Shown here piece after piece: positions 43-34,672 of a stretch of 40,159 bases of DNA (positions within the stretch are counted from its first letter, which is position 1; each line of letters starts with the position of its first letter). The stretch is from an uncultured Bacilli bacterium (GTDB lineage: Bacteria; Bacillota_I; Bacilli_A; RF39; UBA660). The stretch covers positions 1 through 40,159 of the forward strand of contig CANQFO010000001.1 in assembly GCA_947599755.1 (NCBI GenBank). The letters are read 5' to 3'. The notes under the pieces were generated by a model. The model did not search any database, was not told the DNA's origin, and worked only from the letters and a program-made list of their open reading frames with translations. A program made the translations under genes and the position numbers.

Positions 43-612
43 ATGAACAATAATGAAATTGTAAATTTAATATATGAGAAAGAATTAGAAATAAAAAAAT
101 TGAAAATTGAAATTGAAGAATTAAAAGATAAGTTGAATAAACCAATTATTAATGACACTGAATTATCTTTAACTAGAGAAGAAAAAGTCAAAGTATTTAT
201 GAATTACTTTAGAGGTAGAGATGATGTTTATCCATATTTATCAATAGATAAAAATAATCCTAAAATTAAATATTATATCCCAGCATGTGTAAATGAGTGG
301 AAGCAAGGTGTATGCAATAAAACGATGGGCAAAAAATGTAAGAATTGCCAGTACAGGGAAAATAAGCCTTTATCAAAGGAAGTTATCTATAATCACATGT
401 ATGGAAATAATCCAATAGGAATTTATCCTTTATTAGAAAATGATACTTGCTACTTTCTATCTTTAGATTTTGATAATAAAAATACTAATAATGATATTAA
501 AAATGACGTATTAGCATTCGCTAGTATCTGTGATGAATATAAAATACCAATTGCTATAGAACGCAGTAGATCAGGAAATGGAATTCATATTTGGATTCCA
601 TGTTCGATTTGA
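43..612 (+). pseudogene. Truncated N-terminal fragment of an archaeo-eukaryotic primase (AEP/PrimPol)-like protein, normally the N-terminus of a much larger helicase-type fusion protein
   Basis: Coiled-coil N-terminus, then AEP motif I DxD (LSLDFDNKN) and motif II sGxGxHxW (SRSGNGIHIWI). The frame stops at TGA 610-612 a few codons after motif II, with no downstream domains. SD GAGGT lies before ATG 43. Confidence 0.6.
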
Positions 613-2960: not shown

Positions 2961-3836
2961 TCAATAAATATTTTTTCTCAACTGCTTTTTTATCAATTTT
3001 GCATGAATAACAATTCGCCCACCTTGATTATTTTGACATGTAGATAACGTCAAAATTTTATCATTTACTCCAACTGTTGTATCAATAGAAGAAATGTTTC
3101 TTTTTTTCATGACATTAAGCCATTTTTTTTTAGTAGCATGATCGATAAAATCAGTTGTTATATAATATTTTTCACTTTGAATAGTATAAATTGAAAATAT
3201 TTGAAATATCATATTTTCTTTTAAAGTAGATAACCATATAACATAATTATCTTTATTATTTTGCCAATTACTGGAAAGCATATCTTTCAAAGAACCAAAC
3301 AAAGTTTTATCAAGTCTACCATGACCATATATTATAGTATTATCGCTCAAACAATCAATATTATTACGATAATCCATAAATATCCAACCTGCATGATTAA
3401 ATTCTCGATAAAAAGAATGATTAAGATAGTATTGATTATCCATCGCTTGAACAACAGGATAATGAATATTAGTATTTTTTATGTGAATAAATGCTACTGT
3501 ATCACTATTTTTAGAAGAAAGAATAGAAAAATTAACTTCATAAAAAGGAAATTTTACATAATACCAATAATTACTATTTAGATCACTATCTGGATTAACA
3601 AATTCTCCTTTATCAATAATTTGATTTAAATGAATATTATCGCTAATTTCCGACTTTATTTTTTTAATATTGGAATTATCTTGAAACCAATGAAATATAT
3701 TATATAGTGAGAAGATAATAATAATAAGACATAATATAAAAAAAATAGAAAATAGTATTGTACTTTTCTTACTTTTATTAAAACTATCAAATGATTGTGT
3801 CTCAAAATATTCTTCTATTTTAATATATTTTTTCAC
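2961..3836 (-). CDS. srtB: Class B sortase
   Basis: N-terminal TM anchor, class-B-type stretch (AFIHIKNTNIHYPVVQAMDNQYYLNH), catalytic His (IIYGHG), TLxTC motif (LTLSTCQ) and downstream Arg (GGRIV). GTG start with GAGGTGA SD. Confidence 0.85.
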   Translation of the reverse strand: MKKYIKIEEYFETQSFDSFNKSKKSTILFSIFFILCLIIIIFSLYNIFHWFQDNSNIKKIKSEISDNIHLNQIIDKGEFVNPDSDLNSNYWYYVKFPFYEVNFSILSSKNSDTVAFIHIKNTNIHYPVVQAMDNQYYLNHSFYREFNHAGWIFMDYRNNIDCLSDNTIIYGHGRLDKTLFGSLKDMLSSNWQNNKDNYVIWLSTLKENMIFQIFSIYTIQSEKYYITTDFIDHATKKKWLNVMKKRNISSIDTTVGVNDKILTLSTCQNNQGGRIVIHAKLIKKQLRKNIY

Positions 3837-4952: not shown

Positions 4953-6656
4953 ATGGATTATAATAAATTAACCAAAGAACAATTAATTGAGTTATTAGAA
5001 GAAAACGAAAATAATAATGGTAAATATGGCTTAGTTTGGGATAGAGAAAAAGAACCAGAAAAAATTGTAGAAGAATGTGATAAAAAAATTCCAATCTTAA
5101 AAGAAATATTAGATAAAGAAATTAATAATAATGAGAACTATAATCTATTAATTGAAGGGGATAATTTTCATTCCTTAAGCGTACTAAATTATACTCATCG
5201 AGAAAATATTGATGTAATTTATATTGATCCTCCCTATAATACAGGAAATAAAGATTTTATGTATAATGATCGTTTTGTAGATATAGAAGACGGATATAAA
5301 CATAGTAAATGGTTAAATTTTATGGAAAAAAGATTAAAATTAGCGAAAGAACTATTAAAAAAAGGTGGAATTATTTTTATTAGTATAGACGATAATGAAC
5401 AAGCACAATTAAAATTATTATGTGATAAGATTTTTAATCCCAAAAATTTTATTGGAAATATCATTTGGCATAAAAAAACCCAGCCTTCATTTTTAACCAA
5501 AGAATTAATTAATGTAACAGAATATATCTTAGTATATAAAAGAGATGACTCAGTAAATTTTTTTGGTGGATACACGGATACCAATAAAGCAATTGAAATG
5601 TTAAATTTACCAAATAAACGATGTGAAAGAACCTTTAATAAAAACAATGTAGATATTGGAAATGGATATACAGGATATTTAAAAAAAGGAGTTTATGGGA
5701 ACGCAGAACTTACCGTTGAATTATTAGATGACATAGATGTCATTGATGGAATACCAGATAAAGATATCAGAATGATAGGAAGATTTAAATGGGGGCAAGA
5801 AAAAATTGATCAAGCAATCAAAGAAGGGGCAATTATTTATTTTAAAAGTATAAAAACATTAAGAGCAACCCTAAGTTATCAAGGAAATGTATCTGCTAAA
5901 ATTAAACCACCAATAAATCTTCAATCAAAATTAATTAATAAAATGGCAACCAATACAGATGCTTCAAATGAATTAAAATATTTATTTGATGGAATCAATC
6001 CGATGAGTTATCCAAAACCAACAAAATTAATTAAATTCTTAATCGATAGCGTAACCCATAATAATAAAAGTGCGATTATTTTAGATTTTTTTGCCGGATC
6101 AGGGACAACAGGACAAGCTGTATTAGAATTAAACAAAGAAGATGGAGGAAATAGACAATTTATTTTATGTACAAATAATGAAGGAAAAATTTGTGAACAG
6201 ATTACTTTAAAAAGATTAGAAAAAGTAATGAATGGATATAAAGAGTTTCAAGCTTTAGGAGGAAGTCTAAAATATTATCAATGTAATTTTGTAGAAAATA
6301 GCAACAATCGAGATCAATTATATTTTGATTTAACAGAAAAATGTATTCCAATGTTATGCATAAAAGATAATAATTTTATTGAGTATAAAAAAACAGATGA
6401 ATACAAGATTTATACAAATAAAAATAAAACAAAATATTCATGTGTATATTACTCATTATTTGGAGAAAAAGAAGAAGAATTTATCAAAGAATTAGAAAAT
6501 CTAAAAGGATCAAAAACAATTTATAAATTTACATTAGGAGATAGTGTTGATAAAAATAACTTTCAAAATATCTCTAATTATAAAATAGAACCAATTCCAT
6601 ATAAAATAGTAGAACTATATAAGAAAATAGTAAAAATGAGTAGGGAGAATCAGTAA
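4953..6656 (+). CDS. mod: Type III restriction-modification DNA methyltransferase (Mod, beta-class N6-adenine/N4-cytosine MTase)
   Basis: Motif IV DPPY (VIYIDPPYNTGN) is N-terminal. The SAM motif I FxGxG (LDFFAGSGTTGQA) is C-terminal, with a variable TRD between them, giving beta-class order. SD GGAGGG. The stop overlaps the res start (TAATG). Confidence 0.9.
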   Translation: MDYNKLTKEQLIELLEENENNNGKYGLVWDREKEPEKIVEECDKKIPILKEILDKEINNNENYNLLIEGDNFHSLSVLNYTHRENIDVIYIDPPYNTGNKDFMYNDRFVDIEDGYKHSKWLNFMEKRLKLAKELLKKGGIIFISIDDNEQAQLKLLCDKIFNPKNFIGNIIWHKKTQPSFLTKELINVTEYILVYKRDDSVNFFGGYTDTNKAIEMLNLPNKRCERTFNKNNVDIGNGYTGYLKKGVYGNAELTVELLDDIDVIDGIPDKDIRMIGRFKWGQEKIDQAIKEGAIIYFKSIKTLRATLSYQGNVSAKIKPPINLQSKLINKMATNTDASNELKYLFDGINPMSYPKPTKLIKFLIDSVTHNNKSAIILDFFAGSGTTGQAVLELNKEDGGNRQFILCTNNEGKICEQITLKRLEKVMNGYKEFQALGGSLKYYQCNFVENSNNRDQLYFDLTEKCIPMLCIKDNNFIEYKKTDEYKIYTNKNKTKYSCVYYSLFGEKEEEFIKELENLKGSKTIYKFTLGDSVDKNNFQNISNYKIEPIPYKIVELYKKIVKMSRENQ

Positions 6657-8938
6657 TGAAAGAGTTAAAAAGATATCAAGAAATTGCAGTGGATAAACTA
6701 ATCAAAAGAACAAAAGAATTTTTAGAAGAAGAAGGAAATGAAACAATTGTTTTTGCATCTCCTACTGGATCGGGAAAAACATTTATGGCCACTCAATATA
6801 TCAACAATTTAATTAAAGAAGTAAATGATGATCTTTGCTTTTTATGGGTTAGTATTGGAAAAGGAGAACTTCATCGCCAAAGTATGAAAAGTGTAAAACA
6901 AAATATAAGTGATTCAATAAACTGTTCAATTTTAGAAGATGATTTTTTTGGTTCTAGAACAAGACTAGAACAAAATGAAATTGTATTTTTAAATTGGGAA
7001 AAGATAAGATCAAAAGACAAAAAAACAGGAGAATGGAAAAACCTAGCGATGAAAGAACAAGAAACCAATAATTTTCCTGAAGTACTAGAAGCAACAAGAA
7101 GAATAGGTAGAAAAATTATCTTGATCATTGATGAAAGTCATGCCAGTGCTAATAGTGAAAGAGCCTTAGAAATTAGAGATAAAATTGTAAAACCAGAAAT
7201 TACGATTGAAATGAGTGCAACCCCTGTTTTAACAATGGATAGTGATAGCAGAATTATAGTAAAGGCAATCGACGTAATTGAAGAAGGAATGATCAAAAAA
7301 GAAGTACTCGTTAATCCAGATATAGAAAACATTATGGAAGATGAAATGGATTCTCAAAAATTAATTATTCAAAGCGCTATCAATAAAAGAAATGAATTAG
7401 TAAAATCTTATCAAGAAGAAAATACAAATATAAATCCCTTAGTATTAATTCAAATTCCAAATTCTAATACAGGAGAAGATAAAAAAAATGCTATGATCAA
7501 AATACTAAGAGAAAAAGGAATTACAGAACAAAATTCTAAATTAGCCATTTGGTTAAGCGATGAAAAAATAAATACAGAATCTGATACTCTTCTTCCGTTA
7601 GATAGTAAAATAGAATATTTAATTTTTAAACAAGCAATTGATACTGGCTGGGATTGTCCTAGAGCACAAATTTTAGTAAAATTCAGAGAAATAAAAAGTA
7701 CTACTTTTGAAATTCAAACAGTAGGTAGAATTCTAAGAATGCCAGAAGCTAAGCACTATTTACATGAAGAATTAAATAAAGCATATGTCTATACAAATAT
7801 TCAATCAATTATTGTAGAAAAAGAAATTTATAATCCAAATATTATAAAAAGTTTAGTATCCCATCGCTCAGAAAAATACCACCCCATAAAATTACTATCA
7901 TACTATAAACAAAGAATAGATAATGGAGATATCACTTCGAGTTTCTATCCTACATTCGAAAAAATTTTTTGCCAATATTTTGAAATCAACCAAGAAAAGT
8001 TACCAGATTATTATGAAAATATGGAAAAGTTAAAACAGAAAGGATTAAAAACAGATTTTAACAAAATGGATACCATGATAAAAGACGGACAAGTATCATC
8101 AGAAATATTAGATACATTAAAAGAAGAAATCAAAGGAGATATTTTTTCCGTAAATTTTAGTGAAAATGATTTAGAAGCACAATTTGAAAATATAATCAAA
8201 AATAATTTAAATGGCTTTGCTCCAAGAAGATCACTTTCCCCCGTAAAACAGGCAATTTATTTTACTTTTAAAAAACAATTAAATATCAATTGTGTAAAAG
8301 GAGGATCATTATATATCCAAAACATAATAGTAAAAAATCAATCTCTATTTGAGATGATTTTAGATAAAGCTACCAAGGCATATAAACAAGTTCACGAAGA
8401 AGAAGTAAAGAAAAAAAGCATAGAGAAGTTTAATCCAGAATGGGAAATTTCATCTACCAAAAATTATAATCCAAAAACTCATCAAAAATACAACTTAGAC
8501 TTATCACTATATCAACCACTATATATAAAAATAGACGATAATGGAGATCCAAATCAATTAGAAATAGATTTTATGAACTATATCAATTCCAAAAAAGAAT
8601 CAGTAGAATGGATATGGCAAAATGGAGAAGAACATATGGAATCTAATTTTGGTATTCAAAAAGAAAATGGTTCTACCTTTCAACCAGATTTTTTAATTCG
8701 ATTTAAAGATGGAAGAATTGGTATTTTTGATACAAAAGGTGGAGATAGAAAAACAGATGATCAAGAAAAAGCAAAAGCCTTAAGAAAATATATAAATGAA
8801 GAACGATTCAAAGGAAAAAATTTAATTGGAGGATTAGTAATAAAATCTGGCTCACAATTTAGAGTAAACATAAATGAAACATTTGAACCATTTGATGAAA
8901 ATCCTGATGCATGGCAATATTTTGAACAACTATTATAA
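6656..8938 (+). CDS. res: Type III restriction enzyme Res subunit (SF2 helicase plus C-terminal PD-(D/E)xK nuclease)
   Basis: Walker A (ASPTGSGKT), DEAH-type box (IIDESH), motif III (SATP), motif VI (QTVGRILRMP) and a C-terminal nuclease-like core (FQPDFLIRF...GIFDTKG). Translationally coupled to mod. Confidence 0.85.
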   Translation: MKELKRYQEIAVDKLIKRTKEFLEEEGNETIVFASPTGSGKTFMATQYINNLIKEVNDDLCFLWVSIGKGELHRQSMKSVKQNISDSINCSILEDDFFGSRTRLEQNEIVFLNWEKIRSKDKKTGEWKNLAMKEQETNNFPEVLEATRRIGRKIILIIDESHASANSERALEIRDKIVKPEITIEMSATPVLTMDSDSRIIVKAIDVIEEGMIKKEVLVNPDIENIMEDEMDSQKLIIQSAINKRNELVKSYQEENTNINPLVLIQIPNSNTGEDKKNAMIKILREKGITEQNSKLAIWLSDEKINTESDTLLPLDSKIEYLIFKQAIDTGWDCPRAQILVKFREIKSTTFEIQTVGRILRMPEAKHYLHEELNKAYVYTNIQSIIVEKEIYNPNIIKSLVSHRSEKYHPIKLLSYYKQRIDNGDITSSFYPTFEKIFCQYFEINQEKLPDYYENMEKLKQKGLKTDFNKMDTMIKDGQVSSEILDTLKEEIKGDIFSVNFSENDLEAQFENIIKNNLNGFAPRRSLSPVKQAIYFTFKKQLNINCVKGGSLYIQNIIVKNQSLFEMILDKATKAYKQVHEEEVKKKSIEKFNPEWEISSTKNYNPKTHQKYNLDLSLYQPLYIKIDDNGDPNQLEIDFMNYINSKKESVEWIWQNGEEHMESNFGIQKENGSTFQPDFLIRFKDGRIGIFDTKGGDRKTDDQEKAKALRKYINEERFKGKNLIGGLVIKSGSQFRVNINETFEPFDENPDAWQYFEQLL

Positions 8939-10675: not shown

Positions 10676-10930
10676 ATGCCACAAGAGAAAACGACTATGT
10701 TTAATGTAAAAGAAATCGACACAGAAATGATTAGAGTAACCATTCAAGAAGTATATGAAGCCCTAGAAGAAAGAGGATATAATCCAATAAATCAATTAGT
10801 TGGATACCTAATTAGTGGAGATCCAGGCTATATCTCAAGTTATAAAAATGCTAGAAATAAAATTCAAGAAATCGATCGTGCAAAAATTGTAGAAGTTTTA
10901 TTAAAAGAATTTCAAAAAAAGAACAAATGA
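10676..10930 (+). CDS. ireB: IreB-family regulatory phosphoprotein (UPF0297/YrzL)
   Basis: Conserved core VYEALEERGYNPINQLVGYLISGDPGYISS, about 84 aa long, immediately upstream of ruvX as in Bacilli. Confidence 0.8.
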   Translation: MPQEKTTMFNVKEIDTEMIRVTIQEVYEALEERGYNPINQLVGYLISGDPGYISSYKNARNKIQEIDRAKIVEVLLKEFQKKNK

Positions 10931-11370
10931 AATATTTAGGTTTAGATTTAGGAAGTAAAACACTAGGAATGGCAATTAGTGATAAAGAAGGAAAAATTGC
11001 CAGTAGCTACCAAATCATAAGACATAATGAAGAGTATGATCGATTAATAGAAAAAATAAAAACAATAGTCGAAGAACAAAAAATAGAAAAAATTGTCTTA
11101 GGATTTCCAAAAAATATGAACAATACTATTGGTCCAAAAGGAAAGCTTAGTTTAGACTTTAAAAAGAAACTAGAAGAAAACTTGACTATACCAATTGAAT
11201 TACAAGATGAACGATTAACAACTAAATCTGCCACAAATATTTTAATACAGGGTGGATTGTCTAGAAAAAAAAGAAAAAAAGTAATTGACAGCATAGCTGC
11301 AACTATCATATTACAAACATTTTTAGATAGGAGAGAAAAAAATGAGTCAGAGCACATTTACTATGATTGA
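10927..11370 (+). CDS. ruvX: Holliday junction resolvase-like nuclease RuvX (YqgF/YrrK)
   Basis: N-terminal YLGLDLGSKTLGMAISD motif and DERLTT motif. ATGA overlap with ireB. Confidence 0.9.
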   Translation: MKYLGLDLGSKTLGMAISDKEGKIASSYQIIRHNEEYDRLIEKIKTIVEEQKIEKIVLGFPKNMNNTIGPKGKLSLDFKKKLEENLTIPIELQDERLTTKSATNILIQGGLSRKKRKKVIDSIAATIILQTFLDRREKNESEHIYYD

Positions 11371-11635
11371 TGAAAGTGGAAAAGAAGTAGTATATGAGGT
11401 ATTATTTACATTTGAAAGTGATGAAACCAATAAAAATTATATTGTCTATACAGATAATAAAAAAGATGAAACAGGTAATATCGAAGTATATGCATCAATT
11501 TATGATCCAAAAGATCCAAAAAGCAAATTAGAAGCAATTGAAACCGATAAAGAATGGAAAGTAATTGAAACAATTCTAGAAACATTACAAGAAGAAATCA
11601 AAAATAAACAAAACGAAGAAAATAACGAGCAATAG
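11342..11635 (+). CDS. DUF1292-family small acidic protein (YrzB-like)
   Basis: Size, acidic composition, the pattern TMIDESGKEVVYEVLFTFESDETNKNYIVY, and the conserved position between ruvX and mltG. Confidence 0.7.
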   Translation: MSQSTFTMIDESGKEVVYEVLFTFESDETNKNYIVYTDNKKDETGNIEVYASIYDPKDPKSKLEAIETDKEWKVIETILETLQEEIKNKQNEENNEQ

Positions 11636-11662: not shown

Positions 11663-12736
11663 ATGACAATAAAAAGGAGAAGGCCAAAACCACTATTGAT
11701 TATTTTAATCATAGTAGCATCAATAACATGCGTATTAGCAGGAACAATTATCTATTGGATGAGTCCCGTAAATTCAAAAAGTAATGCTCAAATAGAAGTG
11801 GTGATAAAACCAGGAACTAGTACAAAAGAAATTGGAAAATTATTAAAAGAAAAAAAAATCATTAAAAACCAATTATTTTTTCAAATTTATATAAAAATGC
11901 AAGGAAAAAGTTCTTTAAAAGCATCAACATATTTATTAAAAAAAAATATGTCATTAAAAAAAATTATTTCCATTTTAGAAAAAGGAAATAATTATAATCC
12001 AGATGCAGTAACAATAACCTTTAAAGAGGGACAAAGAATTACAGATTATTGTGAAATCATTGCGAAAAAGACAAATATTACTTACGAAGAAGCAATATCA
12101 ATAATGCAAGACAGAGAATATATAAAAACCTTAATTGATAAGTATTGGTTTTTAACAGATACTATTTTAAATGAACAAATATATTATCCACTAGAAGGGT
12201 ACTTATTACCCGATACATTTCAACTAAAAAATAAAGAAGTACAAATGAATGAAATCATTGAAATTCTATTAAATGAAACAAAAAATAAACTAGAAAAAGA
12301 AAAAGAAGCAATACAAAATAATATTCATGAAATAATAACACTAGCATCAATTGTAGAATTAGAAGGAACCAATAAAGAAAATAGGAAAATGATCGCAGGA
12401 ATATTAAATAATCGACTAACAGCGAAGATGAATTTAGGAAGTGACGTAACTACATATTATGCTCTACAATATCCCATGAAAAGTGATTTAACAAAAGAAC
12501 AATTTGAAACGATTAATCCCTATAATACAAGAGCAATCAATATGGCAGGAAAACTACCTATTGGTCCCATTTGTAATCCAAGTATATCAAGTATAGAAGC
12601 AGTAGTAGAACCAACAATAAGTGAATATTACTATTTTGTTGCTGATAAAAAAGGAAATATATATTATACAAAAACCTTATCAGAACATCAAAAAAAAGTA
12701 CAAGAAATTAAAGATAGAGGAGAATGGATATGGTAA
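11663..12736 (+). CDS. mltG: Endolytic murein transglycosylase MltG (YceG/YrrL)
   Basis: N-terminal TM and YceG motifs: LASIVELEG (catalytic Glu), LGSDVTTYYAL, YNTR...GKLPIGPICNPS. Confidence 0.9.
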   Translation: MTIKRRRPKPLLIILIIVASITCVLAGTIIYWMSPVNSKSNAQIEVVIKPGTSTKEIGKLLKEKKIIKNQLFFQIYIKMQGKSSLKASTYLLKKNMSLKKIISILEKGNNYNPDAVTITFKEGQRITDYCEIIAKKTNITYEEAISIMQDREYIKTLIDKYWFLTDTILNEQIYYPLEGYLLPDTFQLKNKEVQMNEIIEILLNETKNKLEKEKEAIQNNIHEIITLASIVELEGTNKENRKMIAGILNNRLTAKMNLGSDVTTYYALQYPMKSDLTKEQFETINPYNTRAINMAGKLPIGPICNPSISSIEAVVEPTISEYYYFVADKKGNIYYTKTLSEHQKKVQEIKDRGEWIW

Positions 12737-13338
12737 ATCAATATGGTCTAATCAAACAAATCAAAGAATATGCCGATAAAAATAACATTCCAATCATCAC
12801 TGATGAAGGAATAAGTTATATCACAAACTATATAATCAAACATCAAATAAAACAAGTGTTAGAAATTGGAACGGCAATTGGCTATTCAGCTATTAAAATG
12901 GCCTTATCCTATAAAGATGTAGAAATTACAAGTATTGAAAGAGATGAAAAAAGATATTTAGAAGCTCTAAAAAATATCAAAAAACTAGATTTAGAAGATA
13001 GAATTCACTTAATTTATAATGATGCCTTACTCGTAAACTTAAAAGATAAATTTGATTTAATTTTTATTGATGCAGCAAAGGCACAAAATATAAAATTTTT
13101 CGAAAAATTTGAACACAATCTATTACCAAATGGAACAATCATTACTGATAACATATTTTTTCATGGATTAGTCAAAAAAAATGAAGAAGAAATAGAAAGT
13201 AAAAACTTAAAAGCATTAGTTAGAAAAATAAAAGCATATATAGAATTTTTAGAAAAAAATTCATCATTTGAAACACAAATTTTAGAAATTGGCGATGGAA
13301 TTGCTGTAAGTAGAAGAACCAAAACAGAAGGTGATTAA
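12724..13338 (+). CDS. trmR: Class I SAM-dependent O-methyltransferase, YrrM/TrmR-like (tRNA ho5U methyltransferase family)
   Basis: SAM motif I (VLEIGTAIGYSA) and DLIFIDAAK. It holds the synteny position of B. subtilis yrrM. ATG 12730 fits the GAGGAG SD better than ATG 12724. Confidence 0.7.
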   Translation: MDMVNQYGLIKQIKEYADKNNIPIITDEGISYITNYIIKHQIKQVLEIGTAIGYSAIKMALSYKDVEITSIERDEKRYLEALKNIKKLDLEDRIHLIYNDALLVNLKDKFDLIFIDAAKAQNIKFFEKFEHNLLPNGTIITDNIFFHGLVKKNEEEIESKNLKALVRKIKAYIEFLEKNSSFETQILEIGDGIAVSRRTKTEGD

Positions 13339-14077
13339 ATTGGTAGGCAAAGAAAGAGAAAAACTATCAAAAATCATTTTAACCAAGTGGGTACCAATAC
13401 TAATAGGAGGAATCATCTTTATCATGGCATTTTGGATAATAACCAAAATAATTTCTCCCAAACAAGAAAATTCTTACCAAAATATACTAACGAATCAATC
13501 CAAAGATATTGTCTATGATATAGAAAATAACTCTATACAAAAAAATGATAAAGTACCAAGAATTAATTTAAATACAGAAAAAATTAATCAAATAAATAAA
13601 GAAATAGAAACCTCATATGAAGATTATTTAGCAAAATTTACAGACGGATATACTTATCAATATAATATTTCAAACAATATTTTATCAATTTTAATTACCT
13701 CAAAACAAAGATATAATGACGCTTTAAATTATGATATTACCTATAAATCTTATAATATTGATCTAGGCAATTTAGAACCGCTAAATCAAAAACAATTACT
13801 AAAAAAATTTAATATTACAGAAAAACAATTAAGATATTTTATAACTTATAAATTTGTAAATTATTATAATGACCTAATCAAAAAACAATATTTTACAGAA
13901 GAAGAATGTAATTATAATTGTTTCATTGAAAGCAAAAATATTTTTGATTACTTAGAAAATAATCAATACTATATAAATAATAATCATTTAGAAGTATATA
14001 AATATTTCAATATATTTACAGACTATAAGGAAGAAGAGTACTTTACAGAAGATTCATTTCATTTTATAATCAAATAA
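13331..14077 (+). CDS. Membrane-anchored hypothetical protein, paralog A (related to 16041-16796)
   Basis: GTG start overlaps the trmR stop by 8 nt. It has one N-terminal TM helix. The C-terminal region shares a colinear motif with the paralog (YFTEEECNYNCF...YL.N..YY / YFDPKECNYSCF...YLDNVTYY). Confidence 0.6.
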   Translation: MIKLVGKEREKLSKIILTKWVPILIGGIIFIMAFWIITKIISPKQENSYQNILTNQSKDIVYDIENNSIQKNDKVPRINLNTEKINQINKEIETSYEDYLAKFTDGYTYQYNISNNILSILITSKQRYNDALNYDITYKSYNIDLGNLEPLNQKQLLKKFNITEKQLRYFITYKFVNYYNDLIKKQYFTEEECNYNCFIESKNIFDYLENNQYYINNNHLEVYKYFNIFTDYKEEEYFTEDSFHFIIK

Positions 14078-14095: not shown

Positions 14096-15169
14096 ATGAA
14101 GAAGATATATATATTAAATTGTCGAGGAGATATTTCTACTTGTTGTAGTGATTATGGATTAGCTAAAATACTATCAGTAATAAAAAAATGTTTTCAATTA
14201 ATGCAAATAATAATCCCAATAATTTTAGTGGTAATGATAACGATTCAATTAATTAAGATGATGGCAAATCCAGAAGAACAAAAGAATAAAAAAAATTTAA
14301 TGAATAAATTGATTGCTGCTTTAATTTGTTTTTTTCTACCAACAATAGTAAATCTTACATTAGAAGTAATTGCCATAGGAACAGAAAATGTATTATCGAA
14401 AAATTTTCAAGCTGCTATCTGTTGGGATGCCGCAGACGAAGTAAATGAAATGATTCAAGTAAGTAAAAGTGTTTACATATCTAATCATACGAAAAATTCC
14501 AAAAATTTATATAATGATCCAAGTAATTATGAAGAAGGAGAAGAAAGTAATTCAGAAAATAGTGAGGGAAAAGGAAATATTTTATTAATCGCTGGGCATT
14601 CTTATCCTCCTTATTGTAACAGCAAAGGAATAAGTGATTGCAGAGGAAAAATTTCATCAGGATATGATGAAACTGATCAAACACGAATTTTAGTCAAATT
14701 AATTAAGCAAGAATTAGATAACTTAGGGGTAAAATCAGATATTGCCAATGCTTTAATGGCACAAGATACCAATAAAATGAATAAATCATTTTATCTAGAA
14801 TGTAAAACAGGAAGTGAACTTTGTAAAAAATATAATTGGAAAAAATATAAATATGTTTTAGAAATTCATTTCAATGCATCAAGTGGTGCAACAGCGGCAG
14901 GAACACAGTTAGTAAAAGCAAATCGCAGTTATAGCACAAAAGCAGATCAAGCAATCGTTAATGCAGTAATCAAAAATACAGGAAAAAAACATTATTCAGA
15001 TTATATATATGGAGCATTTAATATTGGATATTTTACCTCTAGAAATGTACCAATTACTTATTTAGAAACAGAATTTTATGATAATAAAAGTGCAATGGAT
15101 AATTATAGTAAAAAGAAAGAACAAATAGCCAAAGATATTGCCAAAGCAATCCAAAAATATTATGGATAA
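14096..15169 (+). CDS. N-acetylmuramoyl-L-alanine amidase (Amidase_3 type) fused to an N-terminal two-TM CCSDYGL module
   Basis: The C-terminal half has Amidase_3-like Zn/catalytic positions (LLIAGHS, YDETDQT, LEIHFNAS, YLETEFYDN). The N-terminal ~115 aa has the CCSDYGL motif, TM1 IIIPIILVVMITIQLIK, an NPEE loop, TM2 and a CW motif. Confidence 0.8.
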   Translation: MKKIYILNCRGDISTCCSDYGLAKILSVIKKCFQLMQIIIPIILVVMITIQLIKMMANPEEQKNKKNLMNKLIAALICFFLPTIVNLTLEVIAIGTENVLSKNFQAAICWDAADEVNEMIQVSKSVYISNHTKNSKNLYNDPSNYEEGEESNSENSEGKGNILLIAGHSYPPYCNSKGISDCRGKISSGYDETDQTRILVKLIKQELDNLGVKSDIANALMAQDTNKMNKSFYLECKTGSELCKKYNWKKYKYVLEIHFNASSGATAAGTQLVKANRSYSTKADQAIVNAVIKNTGKKHYSDYIYGAFNIGYFTSRNVPITYLETEFYDNKSAMDNYSKKKEQIAKDIAKAIQKYYG

Positions 15170-15182
15170 AGGAGAGGGTTTA

Positions 15183-16031
15183 ATGAATTTATTTCAAATA
15201 CTAGCCTGTAATGATACGCTAGGAACATGTTGCAGTGATTATGGATTAGTATCACTAATTGACATAATTAGAACAGCTTTTTCCTATATTCAATTAATCA
15301 TTCCCATTATTTTAATTGTAATGATAACAGTACAATTAATTAAATTAACGATAAATCCAGAAGAAAAAAATGGAACAAAAAAAATAACCAATAAATTAAT
15401 AGGAGCAATCATTTGTTTTTTTCTACCAATATTAATCGATATCATAGTAGGATGGATGCCATCCAATCAACAATTTCAAGTAGCATCTTGTTGGCAAGAA
15501 GCAAAAATATCCCATGAAGTATTAAAACTTCAAAAAAGCACATATATCAAACAAAATGATGATACAGAAAGAAAATCTTTAATTATTAATCCAGGAAAAT
15601 ATAATCCAGGAAATCCAACAACGAGTGAAAATACAACAGGAAGTTCAAAAGGAAAAGAAATTGTAAATTATGCCAAAAAATTTGTTGGAAAAAATTATAT
15701 TTATGGTGGCTATTGGAATGGAGAATTACCTTATACAGGGACAGATTGCAGTGGATTTGTTCAAGGAATATACAAACACTTTGGAATAAATTTGCAAAGA
15801 ACAACCTATGCTCAATGGGACGATACAGGAAGTTATACTTTAGTAAATGAAGCAAATGTTCAAGCAGGAGACTTAATTATGTATGATGGACACGTTGCTA
15901 TCGCAACAGGAAACGGAAGGGAAATTGTTCATGCCCAATCCACCGCAACAGGAATAGTAATATCAAGTGACTATAAAACTTGCTCTAGTAAAGCAATTCT
16001 TGGCATTATGAGAATTAAAGGAATAAACTAG
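15183..16031 (+). CDS. NlpC/P60-family peptidoglycan endopeptidase fused to the same N-terminal two-TM CCSDYGL module
   Basis: NlpC/P60 catalytic Cys (GTDCSGFVQGIY) and His (YDGHVAIATG...IVHAQ). ATG 15183 follows an AAGGAGAGG SD, so the ORF-track 15138 extension is rejected. The N-terminal module is colinear with 14096-14440, including long DNA-level identities. Confidence 0.85.
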   Translation: MNLFQILACNDTLGTCCSDYGLVSLIDIIRTAFSYIQLIIPIILIVMITVQLIKLTINPEEKNGTKKITNKLIGAIICFFLPILIDIIVGWMPSNQQFQVASCWQEAKISHEVLKLQKSTYIKQNDDTERKSLIINPGKYNPGNPTTSENTTGSSKGKEIVNYAKKFVGKNYIYGGYWNGELPYTGTDCSGFVQGIYKHFGINLQRTTYAQWDDTGSYTLVNEANVQAGDLIMYDGHVAIATGNGREIVHAQSTATGIVISSDYKTCSSKAILGIMRIKGIN

Positions 16032-16040
16032 GAGGGGAAA

Positions 16041-16796
16041 ATGAAAAATGATAAAACGCAAAAAGAAAAGAAATTAAACACAAATTTCAAAAAAGGTATC
16101 ATTATCACCTTATCAGCAATTTTAATATTACTGATAGGGTATACATATTTTACAAGAAAAAACATGGAAAATTATAACAATATAAAAAAAGATAAAAGTA
16201 AATATATTGTATATAGTAGATATGAAAATACAAATGAGCAATATCCAAAAAGAATTCCTTATATAAATATAAACTCAGAACCAGTAGAAGCAGTAAATGA
16301 CGATATTCAAATACTATGTAATCAATATTTTGATATAGAAAAAAGCATGATAGACTATGAATATGATATTAATGGAATCATTCTATCAGTAGTAGTAAAA
16401 ATTTTAAATACAGAAACAGAATATGCCCCAAAACCATATTTTAGAACTTATAATATTAATTTAGATACAAAAAAAGTAATTGCAAATGAAGCTTTATTAG
16501 AATATTTTCAAGTAAATTCAAAAACAGTCGAAAAGAAAATTCAACAACAATTTGAAAAATTTTATAAAGAAATAATCATGAATGAATATTTTGATCCAAA
16601 AGAATGTAACTATTCATGCTTTTTAAAATGGAGAGACGTCGATAATTATTTAGATAATGTTACTTACTACGTAGAAAAAGGAAACTTAATCGCCTTTAAA
16701 CCATTTGTTTTTGAATCAATATTTGGAGAAGAAAATTATTTTAAAGATTCAGATTTTGAAATCCTGATCAAAAAGGCAGAGGAGATAAAAGAATAA
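16041..16796 (+). CDS. Membrane-anchored hypothetical protein, paralog B (related to 13331-14077)
   Basis: SD AGGAGGGG and one N-terminal TM. It shares the architecture and C-terminal ECNYxCF motif of paralog A. Confidence 0.6.
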   Translation: MKNDKTQKEKKLNTNFKKGIIITLSAILILLIGYTYFTRKNMENYNNIKKDKSKYIVYSRYENTNEQYPKRIPYININSEPVEAVNDDIQILCNQYFDIEKSMIDYEYDINGIILSVVVKILNTETEYAPKPYFRTYNINLDTKKVIANEALLEYFQVNSKTVEKKIQQQFEKFYKEIIMNEYFDPKECNYSCFLKWRDVDNYLDNVTYYVEKGNLIAFKPFVFESIFGEENYFKDSDFEILIKKAEEIKE

Positions 16797-16857: not shown

Positions 16858-18786
16858 TTAATCTGAGGAATTTAATATACTACGTGGAGCATTTTTACAA
16901 TAATATTCACATGCTTGTGTAGGAGTATACCCCTCTTGTTTAATTCGAAAATCATAAGAACCACCAGAATGTAGCCAATAATTACTTCCATCAAAATTAC
17001 GATAAATATTACCATTACCAAGAAGATCAAATGGATCTCCACCAAACCAACGATAACCATGGAATCCTGCTTTAGCAGAAGTATTTGAAGTCATTGGAAA
17101 ATTATCAACTTCTTCATTAGTACATACTCGATATACCCATGAATTAACAGGAATTTCATTTTTACAAGCTTTTATCCCATTAGCAGTAGTCCGATAATAA
17201 ATAGTTGCATGATCATCATGACCAGTATTTAAAGTAGCAGTTGCCCCTCCCACATAACTAGAACCATTATTTACATCAACCTTACATTGACAAGTATAAG
17301 AATAATAAGAATAACGTCGATAAGGTCGATCTATTAACTTATCAGGATTATTACTGGTATAACTACACTTTCTAGTAGAGTAATTCCACTTATAAATAGT
17401 AAATTGACTAACTTGTATATTCTGTGGATTTTGTGTACCAGGAGTAGAACAAGCTCCTTTATTACAAGCTCCTCCATTAACCGAAGATTTAGAACAAATG
17501 ATAGATGGATTATATTTATCAGTATCCGTCTTAGTCTGAATTAACAAACCATTCCCACAACTAACATTACAAGAACCACTATCCAAAGTAGAATTAGTTT
17601 CACTACAAGTTTTATATATTTGATAAGGAAATTTCTTTTCACTAACATTTCCAGCCGTATCTTTTAGAGTAACAGATATCGTTTTCTTAGTACCATCTAA
17701 TTGAGTTCCCATTGACAATTTTGTCTTAAACTGATTAATAGAAGTTTTTGTAGAAGAATTATCAACAGAATACTTTTTAACAATATTACTAAAAGAATCA
17801 TGATTATCAGAAATATCCGTTAAATCAAGATCTGCAGAGATATCATTATATTGACTATGACTAGAAACAAGTTGAGCACCATTAAATTTAGGAGCTTCAT
17901 TATCCAACCAAAATTCATCAGATAAAACATTTCCAGTAAGTTGATTGTTAGCCAAATCCTTTAATGGATCTAATCCATCGACATTTCCTGGAGAAATGAT
18001 CAATTGATACTTTCCAGATGCATTATCAGGAATAGGAATCCAAAAATTAACCTCTGTTTTTCGTTTAGAAAAATCACTTGGATAAGGAATAGAAAATTCG
18101 CCCCTTCCAGTAGAAAAACCAACAAATTGATTATCTTGATTTAAACGATTATCATCCCGAACGACATTACCAACTTTTTTCCATGTATAATAAAAAGAGC
18201 CAGTAAGTCCAGAATCATCCGTAACTGTTACCAAAACTTGACCATGATGATCACCACAATTAGCAGTAGCAGTTTTACACCAAATATTTTTACTCATCTT
18301 ATAACTACCTTTAGAAGAATTTGGATCAATAATAACATTAGGAGCAGAATTATCAGCACCATTACAACTAGAAGATTTATTTTTAGAACCACCTGAATAA
18401 ACAATTTGATTTTGACTATTTGTACAAGAAAGCGAATATTGATACTCATAATAATCATTAATTCTACGAACCAATACATAAGTATGATTATTGGAACAAC
18501 TAATATCATTCTCTTGAAAATCTTGCAACAAATTTTTACTCTTCAACTCATTATAACTAATAGTATAACAACTACTAGAATCTCCCTCAAACATATCATC
18601 AGCATAAGAATCAGTATAAAGTTTAGCACCAGTAAGCATAGCTTTCTCATAAGCTTCAAATTTCTTATTTTTATTATGTTCACGAATATTTGCAACCCCA
18701 GATAATGCGATTACAGAAAGAATTGATGCAATAGCAATCGCAACTAATAATTCTACTAAAGTAAATCCCTTATTATTTTTTTTCAT
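16858..18786 (-). CDS. Giant (642 aa) type IV prepilin-like protein with Ig-like middle region and Cys-rich C-terminal region
   Basis: Canonical prepilin N-terminal cleavage/methylation signal MKKNNKG|FTLVELLVAIAIASIL (Gly-1, Phe+1, Glu+5). SD AAGGAG. I counted 19 Cys. Ig-like signatures are VTVTDDSGL and TLKDTAGNVS. Confidence 0.8.
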   Translation of the reverse strand: MKKNNKGFTLVELLVAIAIASILSVIALSGVANIREHNKNKKFEAYEKAMLTGAKLYTDSYADDMFEGDSSSCYTISYNELKSKNLLQDFQENDISCSNNHTYVLVRRINDYYEYQYSLSCTNSQNQIVYSGGSKNKSSSCNGADNSAPNVIIDPNSSKGSYKMSKNIWCKTATANCGDHHGQVLVTVTDDSGLTGSFYYTWKKVGNVVRDDNRLNQDNQFVGFSTGRGEFSIPYPSDFSKRKTEVNFWIPIPDNASGKYQLIISPGNVDGLDPLKDLANNQLTGNVLSDEFWLDNEAPKFNGAQLVSSHSQYNDISADLDLTDISDNHDSFSNIVKKYSVDNSSTKTSINQFKTKLSMGTQLDGTKKTISVTLKDTAGNVSEKKFPYQIYKTCSETNSTLDSGSCNVSCGNGLLIQTKTDTDKYNPSIICSKSSVNGGACNKGACSTPGTQNPQNIQVSQFTIYKWNYSTRKCSYTSNNPDKLIDRPYRRYSYYSYTCQCKVDVNNGSSYVGGATATLNTGHDDHATIYYRTTANGIKACKNEIPVNSWVYRVCTNEEVDNFPMTSNTSAKAGFHGYRWFGGDPFDLLGNGNIYRNFDGSNYWLHSGGSYDFRIKQEGYTPTQACEYYCKNAPRSILNSSD

Positions 18787-18830
18787 TCTCTCAGCTCCTT
18801 ATAATAATAATAATAATCCATAAAAACCAA

Positions 18831-20390
18831 TTAATATTGATGATAACGTCGATAAATCATAAATAAAATCAGACATCCAATAAGAATTAAGCAAATACCA
18901 ATAATAGAAAAATAAATAGATGCTCTACTAAGAGTATTAGGAATTTGTATTACTTCATCTTTCATCACAACAGATCGAATAGAACTACCATCCACCGTAA
19001 AAGGAATACATTCCTCACTTAAAGCATATCCCTTAGGAGCAATTGTCTCACATAAAGTATAATCCCCATTTGGTAAATACAAATAATGAGGCTTATCGCC
19101 AGATTCAAACTTCCATGTTTTAGTATCATCTTGACGATTAGTAATCACTAAAGTAGCACCAGGAAGCTCTTTAGAATTAGCAATATCAATTTTACTAATT
19201 TTAACAAAATTAGATAGACGAAAACTAGTATTGACAATCTCATAAGGAACATAGCCTAATAAAAGGTTAGCATATTTCTGATACTTATTCCCTCCATAAT
19301 TATTCATAAGATTATTATTGCTTCCTTCACTAGTTACAGAAGAACTAGTAACTCGATATTGGTATCCTTCTAACTTAGTAAAATGACCAAATACATTGAC
19401 AGTAATAGAAGATAAATCCATCTCACGAATATCAGAAGAAATAGGAATATAAATTCGAAAAGAACCAGTAAAATGAGTTGTATCAGTAATTTTTTCTAAA
19501 TTAGAACGAACCAAATAAGCACCATAATGATTAGGATCATTCAATTCTATTGAATAAAACATAAAATTACTTTGATTGCTAGAAACACTAGGAACAATTT
19601 CACTAGTAATAATATATTTTTTTTCTTCATCAATAGTATAAGAAGGATCAACCTGAAGAGGCATCAAGGAAGAAGCTTCTTCTCCCTGATATAAATTAGC
19701 TTGATCAACAAGAGAAAGAATATAATTAAGATAAGAATATCCTTCCTTACTAGCAGCAGAAGAAATTATCTCTCTAACAGTAGAAGAATCAATATTATTT
19801 TGATTAGAAGAATCATAAAAATCACAAGCATGAATAGAATTTCCAGTATCAATACAATAAGAAGAAAGAGTAGTTTGATGTTCATATAAGTAAAGCCACA
19901 AAGCAATTTGAGTAATATATTGTTTAATAGAATTATCAGAAATATATCCATAGTTCAAATCAGAAAAAATACTATGATAAGAATTAGTAGAATTATATCC
20001 ATGAGCTAAAATATATAAAAGACCTTGATCAGAAACAGAAGTAGGATTATCATCCAATAACTCAATTTTTTCAGTATCTTTAGAAAAAGATAAATTTTTC
20101 ATAAGACTATATAAAGGATGAGAATTATCTTCCGTTCGATAATTACTAGGAAAATCAAAATTGTGCAAATAATTTTGGTAATTAGAACTATCTCCTAAAG
20201 AATTACGAATAAAATTAGTAATAGAAGAATAGTTAGGATGAAAATCTTGTTTTGGTAATAAAGAACGATTAATTCCCGTAGAAATAGCATAACTACTTTT
20301 AAAAAAAGTAGAAACGAAGAAGAAAAAGATAAAAAGACCAATCACTAAAAATCCACTGAGTAAAACCATAAATTTCTTATTTTTTATCAT
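18831..20390 (-). CDS. Cell-wall-anchored adhesin with TQxA (thioester-domain-like) N-terminal region and SpaA/Cna-B-type domain
   Basis: ATG at 20390 follows an AGGAGA SD, so the ORF-track extension to 20741 is rejected. Signal/TM MIKNKKFMVLLSGFLVIGLF. GLLYILAHGY then ITQIALW match the TQxA(I/V)W signature. SpaA-like stretch: ELPGATLVITN...LPNGDYTLCETIAPKGYAL. C-terminus: IPNTL, TM helix, RRYHQY. Confidence 0.75.
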   Translation of the reverse strand: MIKNKKFMVLLSGFLVIGLFIFFFFVSTFFKSSYAISTGINRSLLPKQDFHPNYSSITNFIRNSLGDSSNYQNYLHNFDFPSNYRTEDNSHPLYSLMKNLSFSKDTEKIELLDDNPTSVSDQGLLYILAHGYNSTNSYHSIFSDLNYGYISDNSIKQYITQIALWLYLYEHQTTLSSYCIDTGNSIHACDFYDSSNQNNIDSSTVREIISSAASKEGYSYLNYILSLVDQANLYQGEEASSLMPLQVDPSYTIDEEKKYIITSEIVPSVSSNQSNFMFYSIELNDPNHYGAYLVRSNLEKITDTTHFTGSFRIYIPISSDIREMDLSSITVNVFGHFTKLEGYQYRVTSSSVTSEGSNNNLMNNYGGNKYQKYANLLLGYVPYEIVNTSFRLSNFVKISKIDIANSKELPGATLVITNRQDDTKTWKFESGDKPHYLYLPNGDYTLCETIAPKGYALSEECIPFTVDGSSIRSVVMKDEVIQIPNTLSRASIYFSIIGICLILIGCLILFMIYRRYHQY

Positions 20391-20452
20391 ACAGACATCT
20401 CCTATCTTCTTAAGTATACCATATCTAAAAAAAATAGACAAAGAAAAATAAC

Positions 20453-20481
20453 TTGCTAGGAAAAAAAAACAATTATATAAT
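20453..20481 (+). promoter_or_regulatory. Candidate sigma-A promoter for the U32 gene pair (TTGCTA-17 nt-TATAAT)
   Basis: TTGCTA at 20453-20458, exact 17-nt spacer, consensus TATAAT at 20476-20481, about 20 nt upstream of the GAGGTGA SD and ATG 20503. Confidence 0.45.
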
Positions 20482-20502
20482 AAGAGGAAAAAGAGGTGAA
20501 GT

Positions 20503-21366
20503 ATGAAACTAGTAATTGATCCACTAACAATAAAAGATTCCATCCTAAAAAAAGCAGATGGAATAATTCTTTCCCTAAAAGATTTTTCAGTGCAAAGTGA
20601 AAAAGTATATACAATAGAACAAATCAAAGATTTAAAAAAACAATATCCTAATATAGAAATATTTGTAAATATAAATAAGATTATATATAATAAAGATCTA
20701 AAAAAATTAGAAAAAATATTATTAGAATTAGAAAAAATCAATATTCAAGCAGTATTGTTTTATGACTTATCTATATTACAAATCAAAAAAGAAAAAAATT
20801 TAAAAATAGATTTAGTATGGAGTCAAACCCATATGGTAAATAATAAAAACACCTGTAATTTTTATCAAAAAAAAGGCGTAAAATATGCACTAATAAGTAA
20901 AGAAATTACTTTAGAAGAAATAAAAGAAATCCAAAAAGAAAGCAACATGCTCCTAATGATAGAAGTAGTAGGAAGACCAAGTATTGCCTTCTCAAAGAGA
21001 AAACTATTAACCAACTTTTATAAAAATATCCAAAAACCAAAGAAAAACAAATTAGAAATTACAGAAAAACAAACCAATCAAAAATATGAATTATCAGAAA
21101 CAGAAGAAGGAACCAGTTTGATAAGAAAAGAAATCACAAATGCAACCCAAATAATCAAAGAACTAAACAAAGAGAAAATATCATATATTATCATGAGAGA
21201 ATATGGAATAGAAAAAACAATATGGGAAGAATTAATAAATGATACAAAGATCTATCTACAAAATAATTGTCAAAATGAAGAATATATTGAAAAATATAAA
21301 ATACTAGGAAAAAATACAAACTTCTTTTTTCAAAAAACAATTTATCAGGTGAAGAAAAATGACTAA
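20503..21366 (+). CDS. Peptidase U32-family protein, YrrN-like (TrhP1-type partner of tRNA U34 hydroxylation)
   Basis: TIM-barrel-like U32 N-terminal pattern and the synteny position of yrrN. The Cys-rich U32 signature is absent at the expected site (IEVVGRPSIAFSKRK). Overlaps the next gene by 8 nt. Confidence 0.65.
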   Translation: MKLVIDPLTIKDSILKKADGIILSLKDFSVQSEKVYTIEQIKDLKKQYPNIEIFVNINKIIYNKDLKKLEKILLELEKINIQAVLFYDLSILQIKKEKNLKIDLVWSQTHMVNNKNTCNFYQKKGVKYALISKEITLEEIKEIQKESNMLLMIEVVGRPSIAFSKRKLLTNFYKNIQKPKKNKLEITEKQTNQKYELSETEEGTSLIRKEITNATQIIKELNKEKISYIIMREYGIEKTIWEELINDTKIYLQNNCQNEEYIEKYKILGKNTNFFFQKTIYQVKKND

Positions 21367-28204: not shown

Positions 28205-28219
28205 GTGTAGGTGGTAAGG

Positions 28220-32303: not shown

Positions 32304-32336
32304 AAGAAAAAATGAAAAAAGAAAGGAAGGGATAAA

Positions 32337-33143: not shown

Positions 33144-33173
33144 ACGATAAAAGATAAAAGGGTGTGAAAAAAA

Positions 33174-34658: not shown

Positions 34659-34672
34659 AAAGGAGTGAATAT

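Follow-up and report, generated by a model that had tools for sequence, protein, structure and literature searches.

Pilins of the VirB2/TrbC type (PF18895, NF045849) of the type IV secretion system (T4SS) are small proteins in which two hydrophobic helices, connected through a short basic loop, form a hairpin. In the accepted VirB2 topology both termini are outside and the loop is inside, and in VirB2 and TraA pili both termini lie on the exterior of the fibre. Here, we describe two adjacent genes, A and B, that encode predicted peptidoglycan hydrolases with such a hairpin as their N-terminal module. They are located in a stretch of 40,159 nucleotides (nt), hereafter the window, from an uncultured Bacilli bacterium (GTDB lineage Bacilli_A; RF39; UBA660; assembly GCA_947599755.1, contig CANQFO010000001.1, positions 1–40,159). 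The two genes are flanked by genes for putative partner proteins, X1 and X2. A third, free-standing copy of the module, gene C, belongs to a T4SS locus in the same window. We put the probability at about 0.5 that A and B are membrane-tethered hydrolases of the cell's own wall that use a co-opted pilin paralogue as their anchor, with the X proteins as partners or regulators.

Gene C follows the pattern of the PF18895 family, being a small free protein encoded, in relatives, directly 5' of VirB6-, VirB3- and VirB4-like genes. The module of A and B shares with these pilins the hairpin, the basic loop and the predicted N-out/C-out orientation. Unlike them, it forms the N-terminal part of a 280–360-amino acid (aa) enzyme (282 and 357 aa in the window) that is encoded away from the T4SS, in an mltG operon. 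A and B also differ in having no obvious cleaved signal peptide and in an invariant extracytoplasmic cysteine pair. Because of the C-terminal cargo, head-to-tail cyclisation in the manner of the T-pilin would be impossible in A and B.

Two further groups of proteins are comparable. The Gram-positive VirB1-like hydrolases PrgK (pCF10), TraG (pIP501), CwlT (ICEBs1) and Orf14 (Tn916) are anchored extracellular enzymes of the NlpC/P60, CHAP or amidase type, which are encoded in the transfer operon and held by a plain transmembrane (TM) helix or a lipoprotein anchor. According to Pfam, fold matches and the predicted C-out topology, A and B likewise have a hydrolase domain anchored outside the membrane, but they differ in the pilin-homologue anchor and in their location in the mltG operon. 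A review states that every VirB1 homologue known from Gram-positive systems has a membrane anchor (PMC12857230). In concept, A and B come closest to the modular type IV pilins of Streptococcus sanguinis, such as PilB, in which a pilin module is followed by a functional C-terminal module whose activity is displayed by the filament or machine (PMC8179133). These belong to an unrelated superfamily (type IV prepilin instead of VirB2-like hairpin), and their cargo is an adhesin rather than a predicted wall hydrolase.

In its catalytic domain, B is structurally closest to housekeeping wall enzymes, namely LytE/CwlO of Bacillus subtilis and MepS of Escherichia coli. Enzymes of this kind, which are under the control of FtsEX or NlpI, are either secreted, bound to the wall or made as lipoproteins; we know of none with a two-TM pilin-like anchor or an X-type partner. 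The individual parts of the system are thus already known (PF18895, Amidase_3, NlpC/P60, membrane-anchored VirB1-like hydrolases). In the literature we found no description of the pilin–enzyme fusion family, its placement in the mltG operon, its pairing with X, or a conserved chromosomal T4SS with pilin-like genes in Bacilli.

Three copies of a VirB2-like module

The N-terminal parts of A and B were 42% identical over 159 aa (E = 8e-32), and their first ~115 residues were collinear, as the original prediction had stated for these adjacent Amidase_3 and NlpC/P60 genes. The more diverged stand-alone copy that it had also proposed, gene C, was 30–31% identical to A and to B across the whole of C (E ~1e-12). 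A profile–profile alignment (hhalign) of 24 fused modules with 37 C-type proteins spanned the full length with a probability of 99.0% (E = 5.5e-18). When hidden Markov models (HMMs) of the fused and the C-type profiles were run against all stop-to-stop open reading frames (ORFs) of the window, exactly three copies of the module were detected. The three-copy observation is real and far beyond chance.

The motifs listed earlier for the module (CCSDYGL, a proline-containing TM1, an NPEE loop, FFLP and CW) were all found. Cys17, Pro41, Pro82 and Cys103-Trp104 (B numbering) were invariant in the 24-sequence module alignment. The same residues were kept in the gene B family (97 members), with Pro82 only at least 90% conserved. 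Both cysteines (the second of the CC pair and the one after helix 2) and both prolines (one per helix) were invariant in 73 fused representatives. Fused modules and C-type pilins also have an N-terminal motif in common, M-x-N-L-F-Q-I-[LG] (positions 14096–14120, 15183–15207 and 38289–38313), the conservation of which matches that of the catalytic core; it is possibly a processing site or a recognition tag.

The module had been described as novel-looking, yet it is already covered by the Pfam family PF18895 (T4SS_pilin, gathering cut-off 26.6 bits), which A (32.0 bits) and B (29.2 bits) matched above and C (14.8 bits) below the cut-off. The suggested resemblance to VirB2/TrbC-type pilins was thereby upheld. 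PF18895 was detected at E ≤ 0.001 in 32 of the 73 fused representatives, and the fused architecture already bears precomputed PF18895 and enzyme annotations in public data. Below threshold, the module matched the NCBIfam model Mbov_0395 'pilin-like conjugal transfer protein' (NF045849) and the N-terminal parts of the transmembrane models pLS20_p028, Mbov_0396 and MMCAP2_0566, which are annotated as proteins of conjugation systems or integrative and conjugative elements (ICEs). By these profile matches, the module is a VirB2-like T4SS pilin hairpin of the PF18895 family. NCBIfam models of VirB6-like ICE proteins also aligned to the module region of A, not significantly here; an ancient kinship is possible. 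Against PDB sequences, the module profile retrieved TM5–TM6 of chemokine receptors only, matches that were judged spurious, and a phmmer search of PDB with full-length A gave no match.

A search for relatives of C returned 752 proteins, and the 120 best-scoring ones were mostly 100–126 aa long. The 37 aligned C-type proteins, taken from these 120, were 65–85% identical, kept the N-terminal cysteine and the C-terminal Cys-Trp and ended a few residues later. Since C-type proteins stop just past Cys-Trp, a fused protein corresponds to an entire pilin-like protein extended by a linker and an enzyme.

Predicted topology and structure

The AlphaFold2 model of B (97-sequence alignment, mean predicted local distance difference test (pLDDT) score 79) contained helices at residues 20–57, 64–91 and 94–117, the last with Cys-Trp. 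The loop at residues 58–63 was NPEEKN, and the linker was disordered. The catalytic NlpC/P60 domain was modelled at pLDDT >90. Foldseek searches with this model retrieved NlpC/P60 proteins only (the Clostridium innocuum NlpC/P60 domain, MepS, LytE and the Clostridioides difficile autolysin Acd33800) and nothing meaningful for the helical hairpin. The DCSGF motif of NlpC/P60 enzymes and a candidate catalytic histidine were kept in the 97 B relatives (H250 invariant, H237 at least 90%).

The loop of the module had a net charge of +2.1 and was positive in 23 of 24 sequences, compared with −0.8 for the N-tail and −0.7 for the segment after TM2. Some pilin paralogues in T4SS loci have a Sec signal peptide and a soluble N-terminal extension of 60–200 aa ahead of the module, so the N-terminus of the module would lie outside. 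The predicted topology is N-out, basic loop in and C-out, which would place the enzyme outside. With this topology the two cysteines would be exposed on the outer face, where a disulfide between them is possible.

Size and partner domains of the fusion family

Clustered at 90% identity, full-length relatives amounted to 128 of the A type and 440 of the B type. The module was present in 108 of the 120 A relatives listed (of 128). A profile search with the modules of A and B yielded 2006 clusters at 50% identity (E ≤ 1e-3), 338 of them at E ≤ 1e-10, and in the 150 best of the 2006 matches the module was situated at or a few residues from the N-terminus. The C-terminal domains of the 73 long representatives were NLPC_P60 (40), Peptidase_C39_2 (11), CHAP (6), Peptidase_C70 (6) and Amidase_5 (3), followed by the rarer Amidase_3 (2), GDSL lipase (2), ATLF (1), M23 (1) and C92 (1). 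All 77 short representatives resembled the fused type and not the C type. Roughly 25 of the 77 stop directly behind Cys-Trp and are for that reason considered genuine free modules.

Genomic location across relatives

In the window, X1, A, B and X2 are four close-packed genes on the plus strand (13.3–16.8 kb, gaps of 9–18 nt; Table 1). The ORF of B was listed from a TTG at 15138; since the ribosome-binding site (RBS) in aaaggagagggttta-ATG precedes the ATG at 15183, the latter is taken as the true start. A scan of 10.5–21.5 kb for promoters and terminators gave counts not above those in shuffled sequence and is therefore uninformative on operon structure.

A scan of a genome collection with a 6-sequence module alignment returned 17 GTDB species representatives. 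Together with L001–L003 and L023 these provided 21 contexts with enough flanking sequence (loci of relatives, numbered with the prefix L, were taken with 10-kb flanks). All 17 species were uncultured metagenome-assembled genomes, and several of the isolate or sample names indicate gut; the record titles read uncultured Bacilli, Mollicutes, Tenericutes or Firmicutes bacterium, or plain uncultured bacterium. The gene order in all 17 species was TspO, rhomboid, ruvX, DUF1292, YceG/MltG, O-methyltransferase, the cassette, two U32 peptidases, HD and greA, with the cassette comprising 1–3 module-enzyme genes and 0–2 X genes. The block ruvX-DUF1292-mltG-O-methyltransferase preceded the cassette in the window and in 21/21 contexts (L001–L003, L006–L023). 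Fused genes inside a T4SS locus were found in 0/21 contexts.

In a distant species (A 38% identical; 1.5-Mb contig) the U32–greA block was relocated and the cassette still followed the methyltransferase, in the order methyltransferase, module-amidase, X, SDR, module-CHAP, module-CHAP, X. Another context had methyltransferase, X, a 545-aa module-amidase and U32. The location next to mltG points to a function in the metabolism of the cell's own wall.

Alternatively, the fusion could be the remnant of a phage lysis cassette, with an endolysin joined to the hairpin as its holin-like or signal-anchor-release element. The catalytic domains do match endolysin and tail-lysin PHROGs, and small two-TM proteins are typical of holins. 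This explanation was nonetheless rejected. Tblastn with the module against 72,556 plasmids and 50,697 phage records gave no match, and the matches of B in plasmids and phages arose via the catalytic domain only. No holin PHROG was matched, the sole sub-threshold match being that of B residues 42–93 to a 'membrane protein' family (E = 0.0012). The module is PF18895, with its nearest relative in a T4SS locus, and the cassette is flanked by housekeeping genes, with no phage genes, at a locus that is syntenic across species.

The putative partner proteins X

X1 and X2 were 30% identical (E = 6e-27) and are paralogues that belong to the same feature as A and B. Neither fell into a Pfam or NCBIfam family. 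Hydropathy, charge and the family alignment indicated a K/R-rich cytoplasmic tail, one TM helix and, on the outside, a domain of ~200 aa in which a C-x3-C is invariant. A profile of 20 X family members matched 3cyg_A in PDB (E = 0.0085) in the 'GGAHG...TYNIDL' region. The model of X2, which was of moderate quality (two sequences, pLDDT 66), matched 3cyg (E = 1.5e-5) and the RsiV–lysozyme structure 5jen (E = 8e-5) with TM-scores of 0.41–0.48, and after these, weakly, DUF3298 structures. The outer domain may thus resemble the RsiV/DUF3298 fold, the solved members of which include 3cyg, 5jen, 3s5t and 4e72. The Pfam models DUF3298 and DUF4163 matched neither X1 nor X2 nor any of the 20 family members.

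X is similar to RsiV/DUF4163-DUF3298 proteins in its predicted layout, with a cytoplasmic N-terminus, one TM helix and an outer alpha/beta domain, but it has no anti-sigma domain, and to our knowledge the invariant C-x3-C is not known from RsiV. RsiV is a membrane-anchored receptor that binds a wall hydrolase, lysozyme (PMC5014341). X genes adjoined module-enzymes of five folds (amidase, NlpC/P60, CHAP, C39-like and ATLF-like, the last two on other contigs), and in L019 and L021 there was one X per two enzymes. No homologue of X was found in the T4SS loci of relatives.

A constant N-terminal module joined to variable C-terminal domains, at least 10 in the 73 representatives, is also what polymorphic toxin systems have. 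A and B might be contact-dependent antibacterial toxins, with a constant trafficking module, variable wall-degrading domains and X as the cognate immunity protein; the X-Tfe/X-Tfi pairs of the Xanthomonas T4SS are the model for such a reading. It would fit the variation in copy number (1–3) and enzyme type at a fixed locus, and the presence next door of a membrane-anchored extracytoplasmic protein with a putative RsiV-like fold. In contrast to polymorphic toxin systems, no toxin-specific immunity gene is present: since the same X family accompanies five enzyme folds, X is not specific to one catalytic fold, and X and enzyme do not occur 1:1. B-type proteins were present in all 17 species of the scan, which used the module's own motif and in L022 detected a free module only. 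Identity to B split into the same clades as that of the neighbouring genes (45–62% and 32–36%), the locus is housekeeping and syntenic rather than strain-variable, and the enzymes would remain tethered to the membrane of the producer. Weakened by the lack of fold specificity in X and by the synteny of the locus, the toxin reading is very unlikely.

Gene C and the chromosomal T4SS locus

Gene C adjoins a VirB6-like gene, as originally proposed. The encoded protein scored just below the TrbL_4 cut-off (Table 1) and was 52% identical to a 712-aa TrbL_4 protein in L004 and L005. In these two loci, where C is 74% identical, the gene order is DUF5411, CpaB-like, VirB11/TadA-type ATPase, two membrane proteins, small proteins and C, and the window order 5' of C is conserved. 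C is followed there by a second pilin-like gene (158 aa), the 712-aa TrbL_4 protein, a 103-aa protein, a TraC-like protein (PF26593), which we read as VirB3-like, a VirB4-like ATPase, a 786-aa SpoIID protein, a 259-aa protein and a VirD4-like coupling protein. Among the three copies of the module, the one of the T4SS is C, which is the pilin-like gene of a genuine T4SS. A possible fourth module copy at the N-terminus of the VirB6-like protein (VQLIIGVFMLFFLALKFLQGIMNPDKF..., 38815–39130) reached an hhalign probability of 14% and HMM E-values of 0.48–0.52 in relatives and is not claimed.

A Tad-like module is joined directly to the T4SS genes (window 31872–40159; L004 and L005 1–20339), after greA on a backbone shared by multiple species. 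This region looks like a conserved chromosomal system and not a mobile element, and no relaxase was seen within the stretches available (window, L004, L005). The T4SS loci of relatives held arrays of 1–3 pilin-like paralogues, some with added domains (L004 10422–10898; L024 1048–2883), which recall the VirB2 arrays reported in Patescibacteria. As these arrays include paralogues with added domains, modularity is a habit of the pilin family. The T4SS loci also encode hydrolases of their own, with a single-TM anchor and without the module: either SpoIID, or Amidase_3 plus NlpC/P60 and glucosaminidase. In L024 (8001–9578; P0209) a hydrolase with a single TM helix, Amidase_3, NlpC/P60 and a C-terminal domain directly follows VirB4.

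Age of the duplication

The modules of A and B shared 62% nt identity, with a longest identical run of 19 nt. At 37 of 52 identical residues the same codon was used, compared with 31.4 ± 3.3 expected from the codon usage of the window (P = 0.054). The identical DNA runs fit conserved motifs and biased codon usage. Separate A-type and B-type orthologues were present in another species (L006), so the duplication is old. Of the duplication or gene conversion inferred in the original prediction, an old duplication is therefore retained and a recent conversion between A and B is not.

Wall-hydrolase anchor or working pilin

If A and B are hydrolases of the cell's own wall, A would be an N-acetylmuramoyl-L-alanine amidase and B an NlpC/P60 endopeptidase of a low-GC gut Bacilli lineage. 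A complete VirB2-like T4SS_pilin, paralogous to C of the chromosome's own T4SS locus, would replace the signal peptide and the wall-binding domains at the N-terminus. Its second helix would act as an internal signal-anchor, from which the enzyme would hang outside on a flexible linker of 30–100 residues and cut the wall near the membrane in the course of growth, turnover or separation. Besides anchoring the enzyme, the pilin-derived module would probably mediate a specific interaction (self-association or contact with X), with X as a partner or regulator of the enzymes. We favour this reading on four grounds: the fused genes occupy a housekeeping position, they are nearly universal in the lineage, they were not found in T4SS loci or on mobile elements, and the T4SS has hydrolases of its own. 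The identity of the domains, the homology among the three copies, the size of the family, the synteny and the company of X are observed, topology and folds are predicted, and the role of X and the action on the cell's own wall are inferred.

Several observations speak against the module being only an anchor. Its best-conserved parts are the extracellular N-tail (mean pairwise identity 67%) and the cytoplasmic loop (63%), which a plain anchor would not require; the corresponding values were 33% for the linker and 72% for the catalytic domain. The cysteine pair and the first proline are likewise invariant among C-type pilins. Free modules without an enzyme persist at the cassette locus: L022 (9980–10375; URHJ01000017.1, UMGS995) has a free 131-aa module alone at the cassette position, with no enzyme, no X and 65 nt to the next gene, and L018 (9634–10846) has a free 115-aa module with a core identical to that of the neighbouring fused gene. 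In L019 (9116–10888) and L021 (9038–10810) the modules of tandem paralogues shared 96.5–97.7% nt identity, with identical runs of up to 283 nt, compared with 76% nt identity for the catalytic parts in L019. The sequences of L018, L019 and L021 point to homogenisation or shuffling restricted to the module. The amidase domain of A, finally, was 54–57% identical to that of T4SS-locus hydrolases, the one in L024 among them, and 43% identical to that of many module-bearing orthologues. The conserved non-membrane parts, the free and homogenised modules and the T4SS-like amidase suggest that the module does something pilin-like.

The same observations can be accommodated if A and B are modular T4SS pilins. 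The module would then be recognised by the T4SS and either co-assemble with C or dock on the VirB6-like channel, so that the attached hydrolase is placed at the machine or fibre and opens either the producer's thick wall or that of a cell in contact with it. This reading refines the docking idea of the original prediction by analogy with modular type IV pilins. In addition to conserved non-membrane parts, free modules at the same locus and the amidase domain shared with T4SS-locus hydrolases, this would agree with the retention of an entire pilin that aligns end to end with C (99%), with the 1–3 pilin paralogues per T4SS locus, some of them with added domains, and with the position of the T4SS, which in the window shares one conserved backbone with the cassette at a distance of 22 kb. 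The same backbone was present in five or more other species up to the end of the locus, which stops short of the T4SS genes. Because both termini of VirB2 and TraA are outside, a C-terminal cargo is geometrically possible on a pilus.

On the other hand, no fusion was located in a T4SS locus, these loci have their own hydrolases and lack X, and in more distant species the T4SS is not adjacent to the cassette. We know of no evidence that a pilus is built by any monoderm Bacilli T4SS. According to a 2025 review, VirB2 is missing from Gram-positive systems, with Patescibacteria as the exception (PMC12857230). On balance, modular T4SS pilins are possible but rather unlikely. It is doubtful, too, that the T4SS beside the Tad-like module extracts the fusions from the membrane, polymerises or places them with C and so displays, on its channel or fibre, wall-cutting enzymes that breach the wall of the cell itself or of a neighbour and that X restrains until assembly. 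The original prediction of fusions docked to a secretion machine, in the manner of CwlT, is thus disfavoured by the gene neighbourhoods and the separate T4SS hydrolases; a link between the fusions and the T4SS may still exist, given the conservation of the whole pilin, including its non-membrane parts, and the kinship of the A amidase with T4SS-locus hydrolases.

Other features of the window

The cassette, its upstream neighbours and the genes around C are listed in Table 1. Two big surface-protein genes are located on the minus strand between X2 and the U32 genes (16858–20741). One product, of 642 aa, bears the N-terminal methylation motif of type IV prepilins; the second is a 636-aa thioester-domain/SpaA-fold protein. 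The start of the 636-aa ORF is probably further downstream, because the listed ORF overlaps the U32 ORF at 20503–21366. This insertion was missing from all 17 other species; a 233-aa protein of L011 weakly matched the N-terminus of the 642-aa protein (E = 2e-7).

Sortase genes were found at 2961–3836 (minus strand) and 28211–29047. The latter, just 5' of the Tad-like/T4SS region, has genes for large Ig-like surface proteins on one side and for a 944-aa protein on the other. Three kinds of surface-fibre machinery are thus brought together in this region. Near the start of the window, the ORF at 43–612 matched the archaeo-eukaryotic primase domain of TOTE conflict systems (PF22548, E = 9.5e-44) over the first 132 of 230 profile positions only, and at 4953–8938 a DNA methylase (N6_N4_Mtase) adjoins a ResIII/SNF2-type helicase-nuclease in what looks like a type III-like restriction-modification pair.

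Table 1. Position and domain content of the cassette, its upstream genes and the T4SS locus in the window.
Feature	Residues (aa)	Position (nt)	Strand	Remarks
ruvX		10927–11370	+	Pfam match; upstream housekeeping
DUF1292 gene		11342–11635	+	Pfam match
mltG/YceG		11663–12736	+	Pfam match
O-methyltransferase gene		12724–13338	+	Pfam match; 8-nt overlap with X1
X1	248	13331–14077	+	Bitopic membrane protein; paralogue of X2
Gene A	357	14096–15169	+	Pilin-like module, low-complexity linker and Amidase_3
Gene A, module	1–117	14096–14446	+	PF18895 at aa 28–86, nt 14177–14353
Gene A, Amidase_3	162–354	14579–15157	+	Pfam, E = 7e-14
Gene B	282	15183–16031	+	Pilin-like module, linker and NlpC/P60
Gene B, module	1–117	15183–15533	+	PF18895 at aa 27–87, nt 15261–15443
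Gene B, disordered linker	118–150		+	AlphaFold2 model
Gene B, catalytic domain	151–282		+	AlphaFold2 model
Gene B, NLPC_P60	169–276	15687–16010	+	Pfam, E = 1.5e-15
X2	251	16041–16796	+	Bitopic; outer domain predicted RsiV/DUF3298-like
Genes directly 5' of C		31872–38231	+	DUF5411, RcpC/CpaB-like, VirB11/TadA-type ATPase, two polytopic membrane proteins, 160-aa and 348-aa proteins
VirB11/TadA-type ATPase		33174–34658	+	
Gene C	114	38289–38633	+	Free-standing, pilin-like; start backed by RBS; ends ~8 residues past Cys-Trp
VirB6-like gene		38815–40159	+	Polytopic membrane protein; TrbL_4 24.5 bits (cut-off 27); continues beyond window end

Implications

Two families are defined here for annotation, the pilin–hydrolase fusions and the X partners. 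As the proteins are small and their domains separable, topology, activity, binding of X and co-assembly are testable in a surrogate host. A gut lineage of Bacilli with a conserved pilin-like gene beside VirB6, VirB3, VirB4 and VirD4 genes sits awkwardly with the review cited above (PMC12857230), and in hundreds of species-level clusters a pilin appears to be reused as the N-terminal module of wall hydrolases. Display of the fusions by the T4SS, if real, would give a Bacilli T4SS a function akin to that of a pilus, and hydrolases a new route of delivery. Continued contact between module and T4SS, if it exists, would reveal the means by which a monoderm machine crosses a thick wall and would help to find out whether such machines build fibres. 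If the module is an anchor only, part of a secretion system would have been domesticated into cell wall housekeeping.

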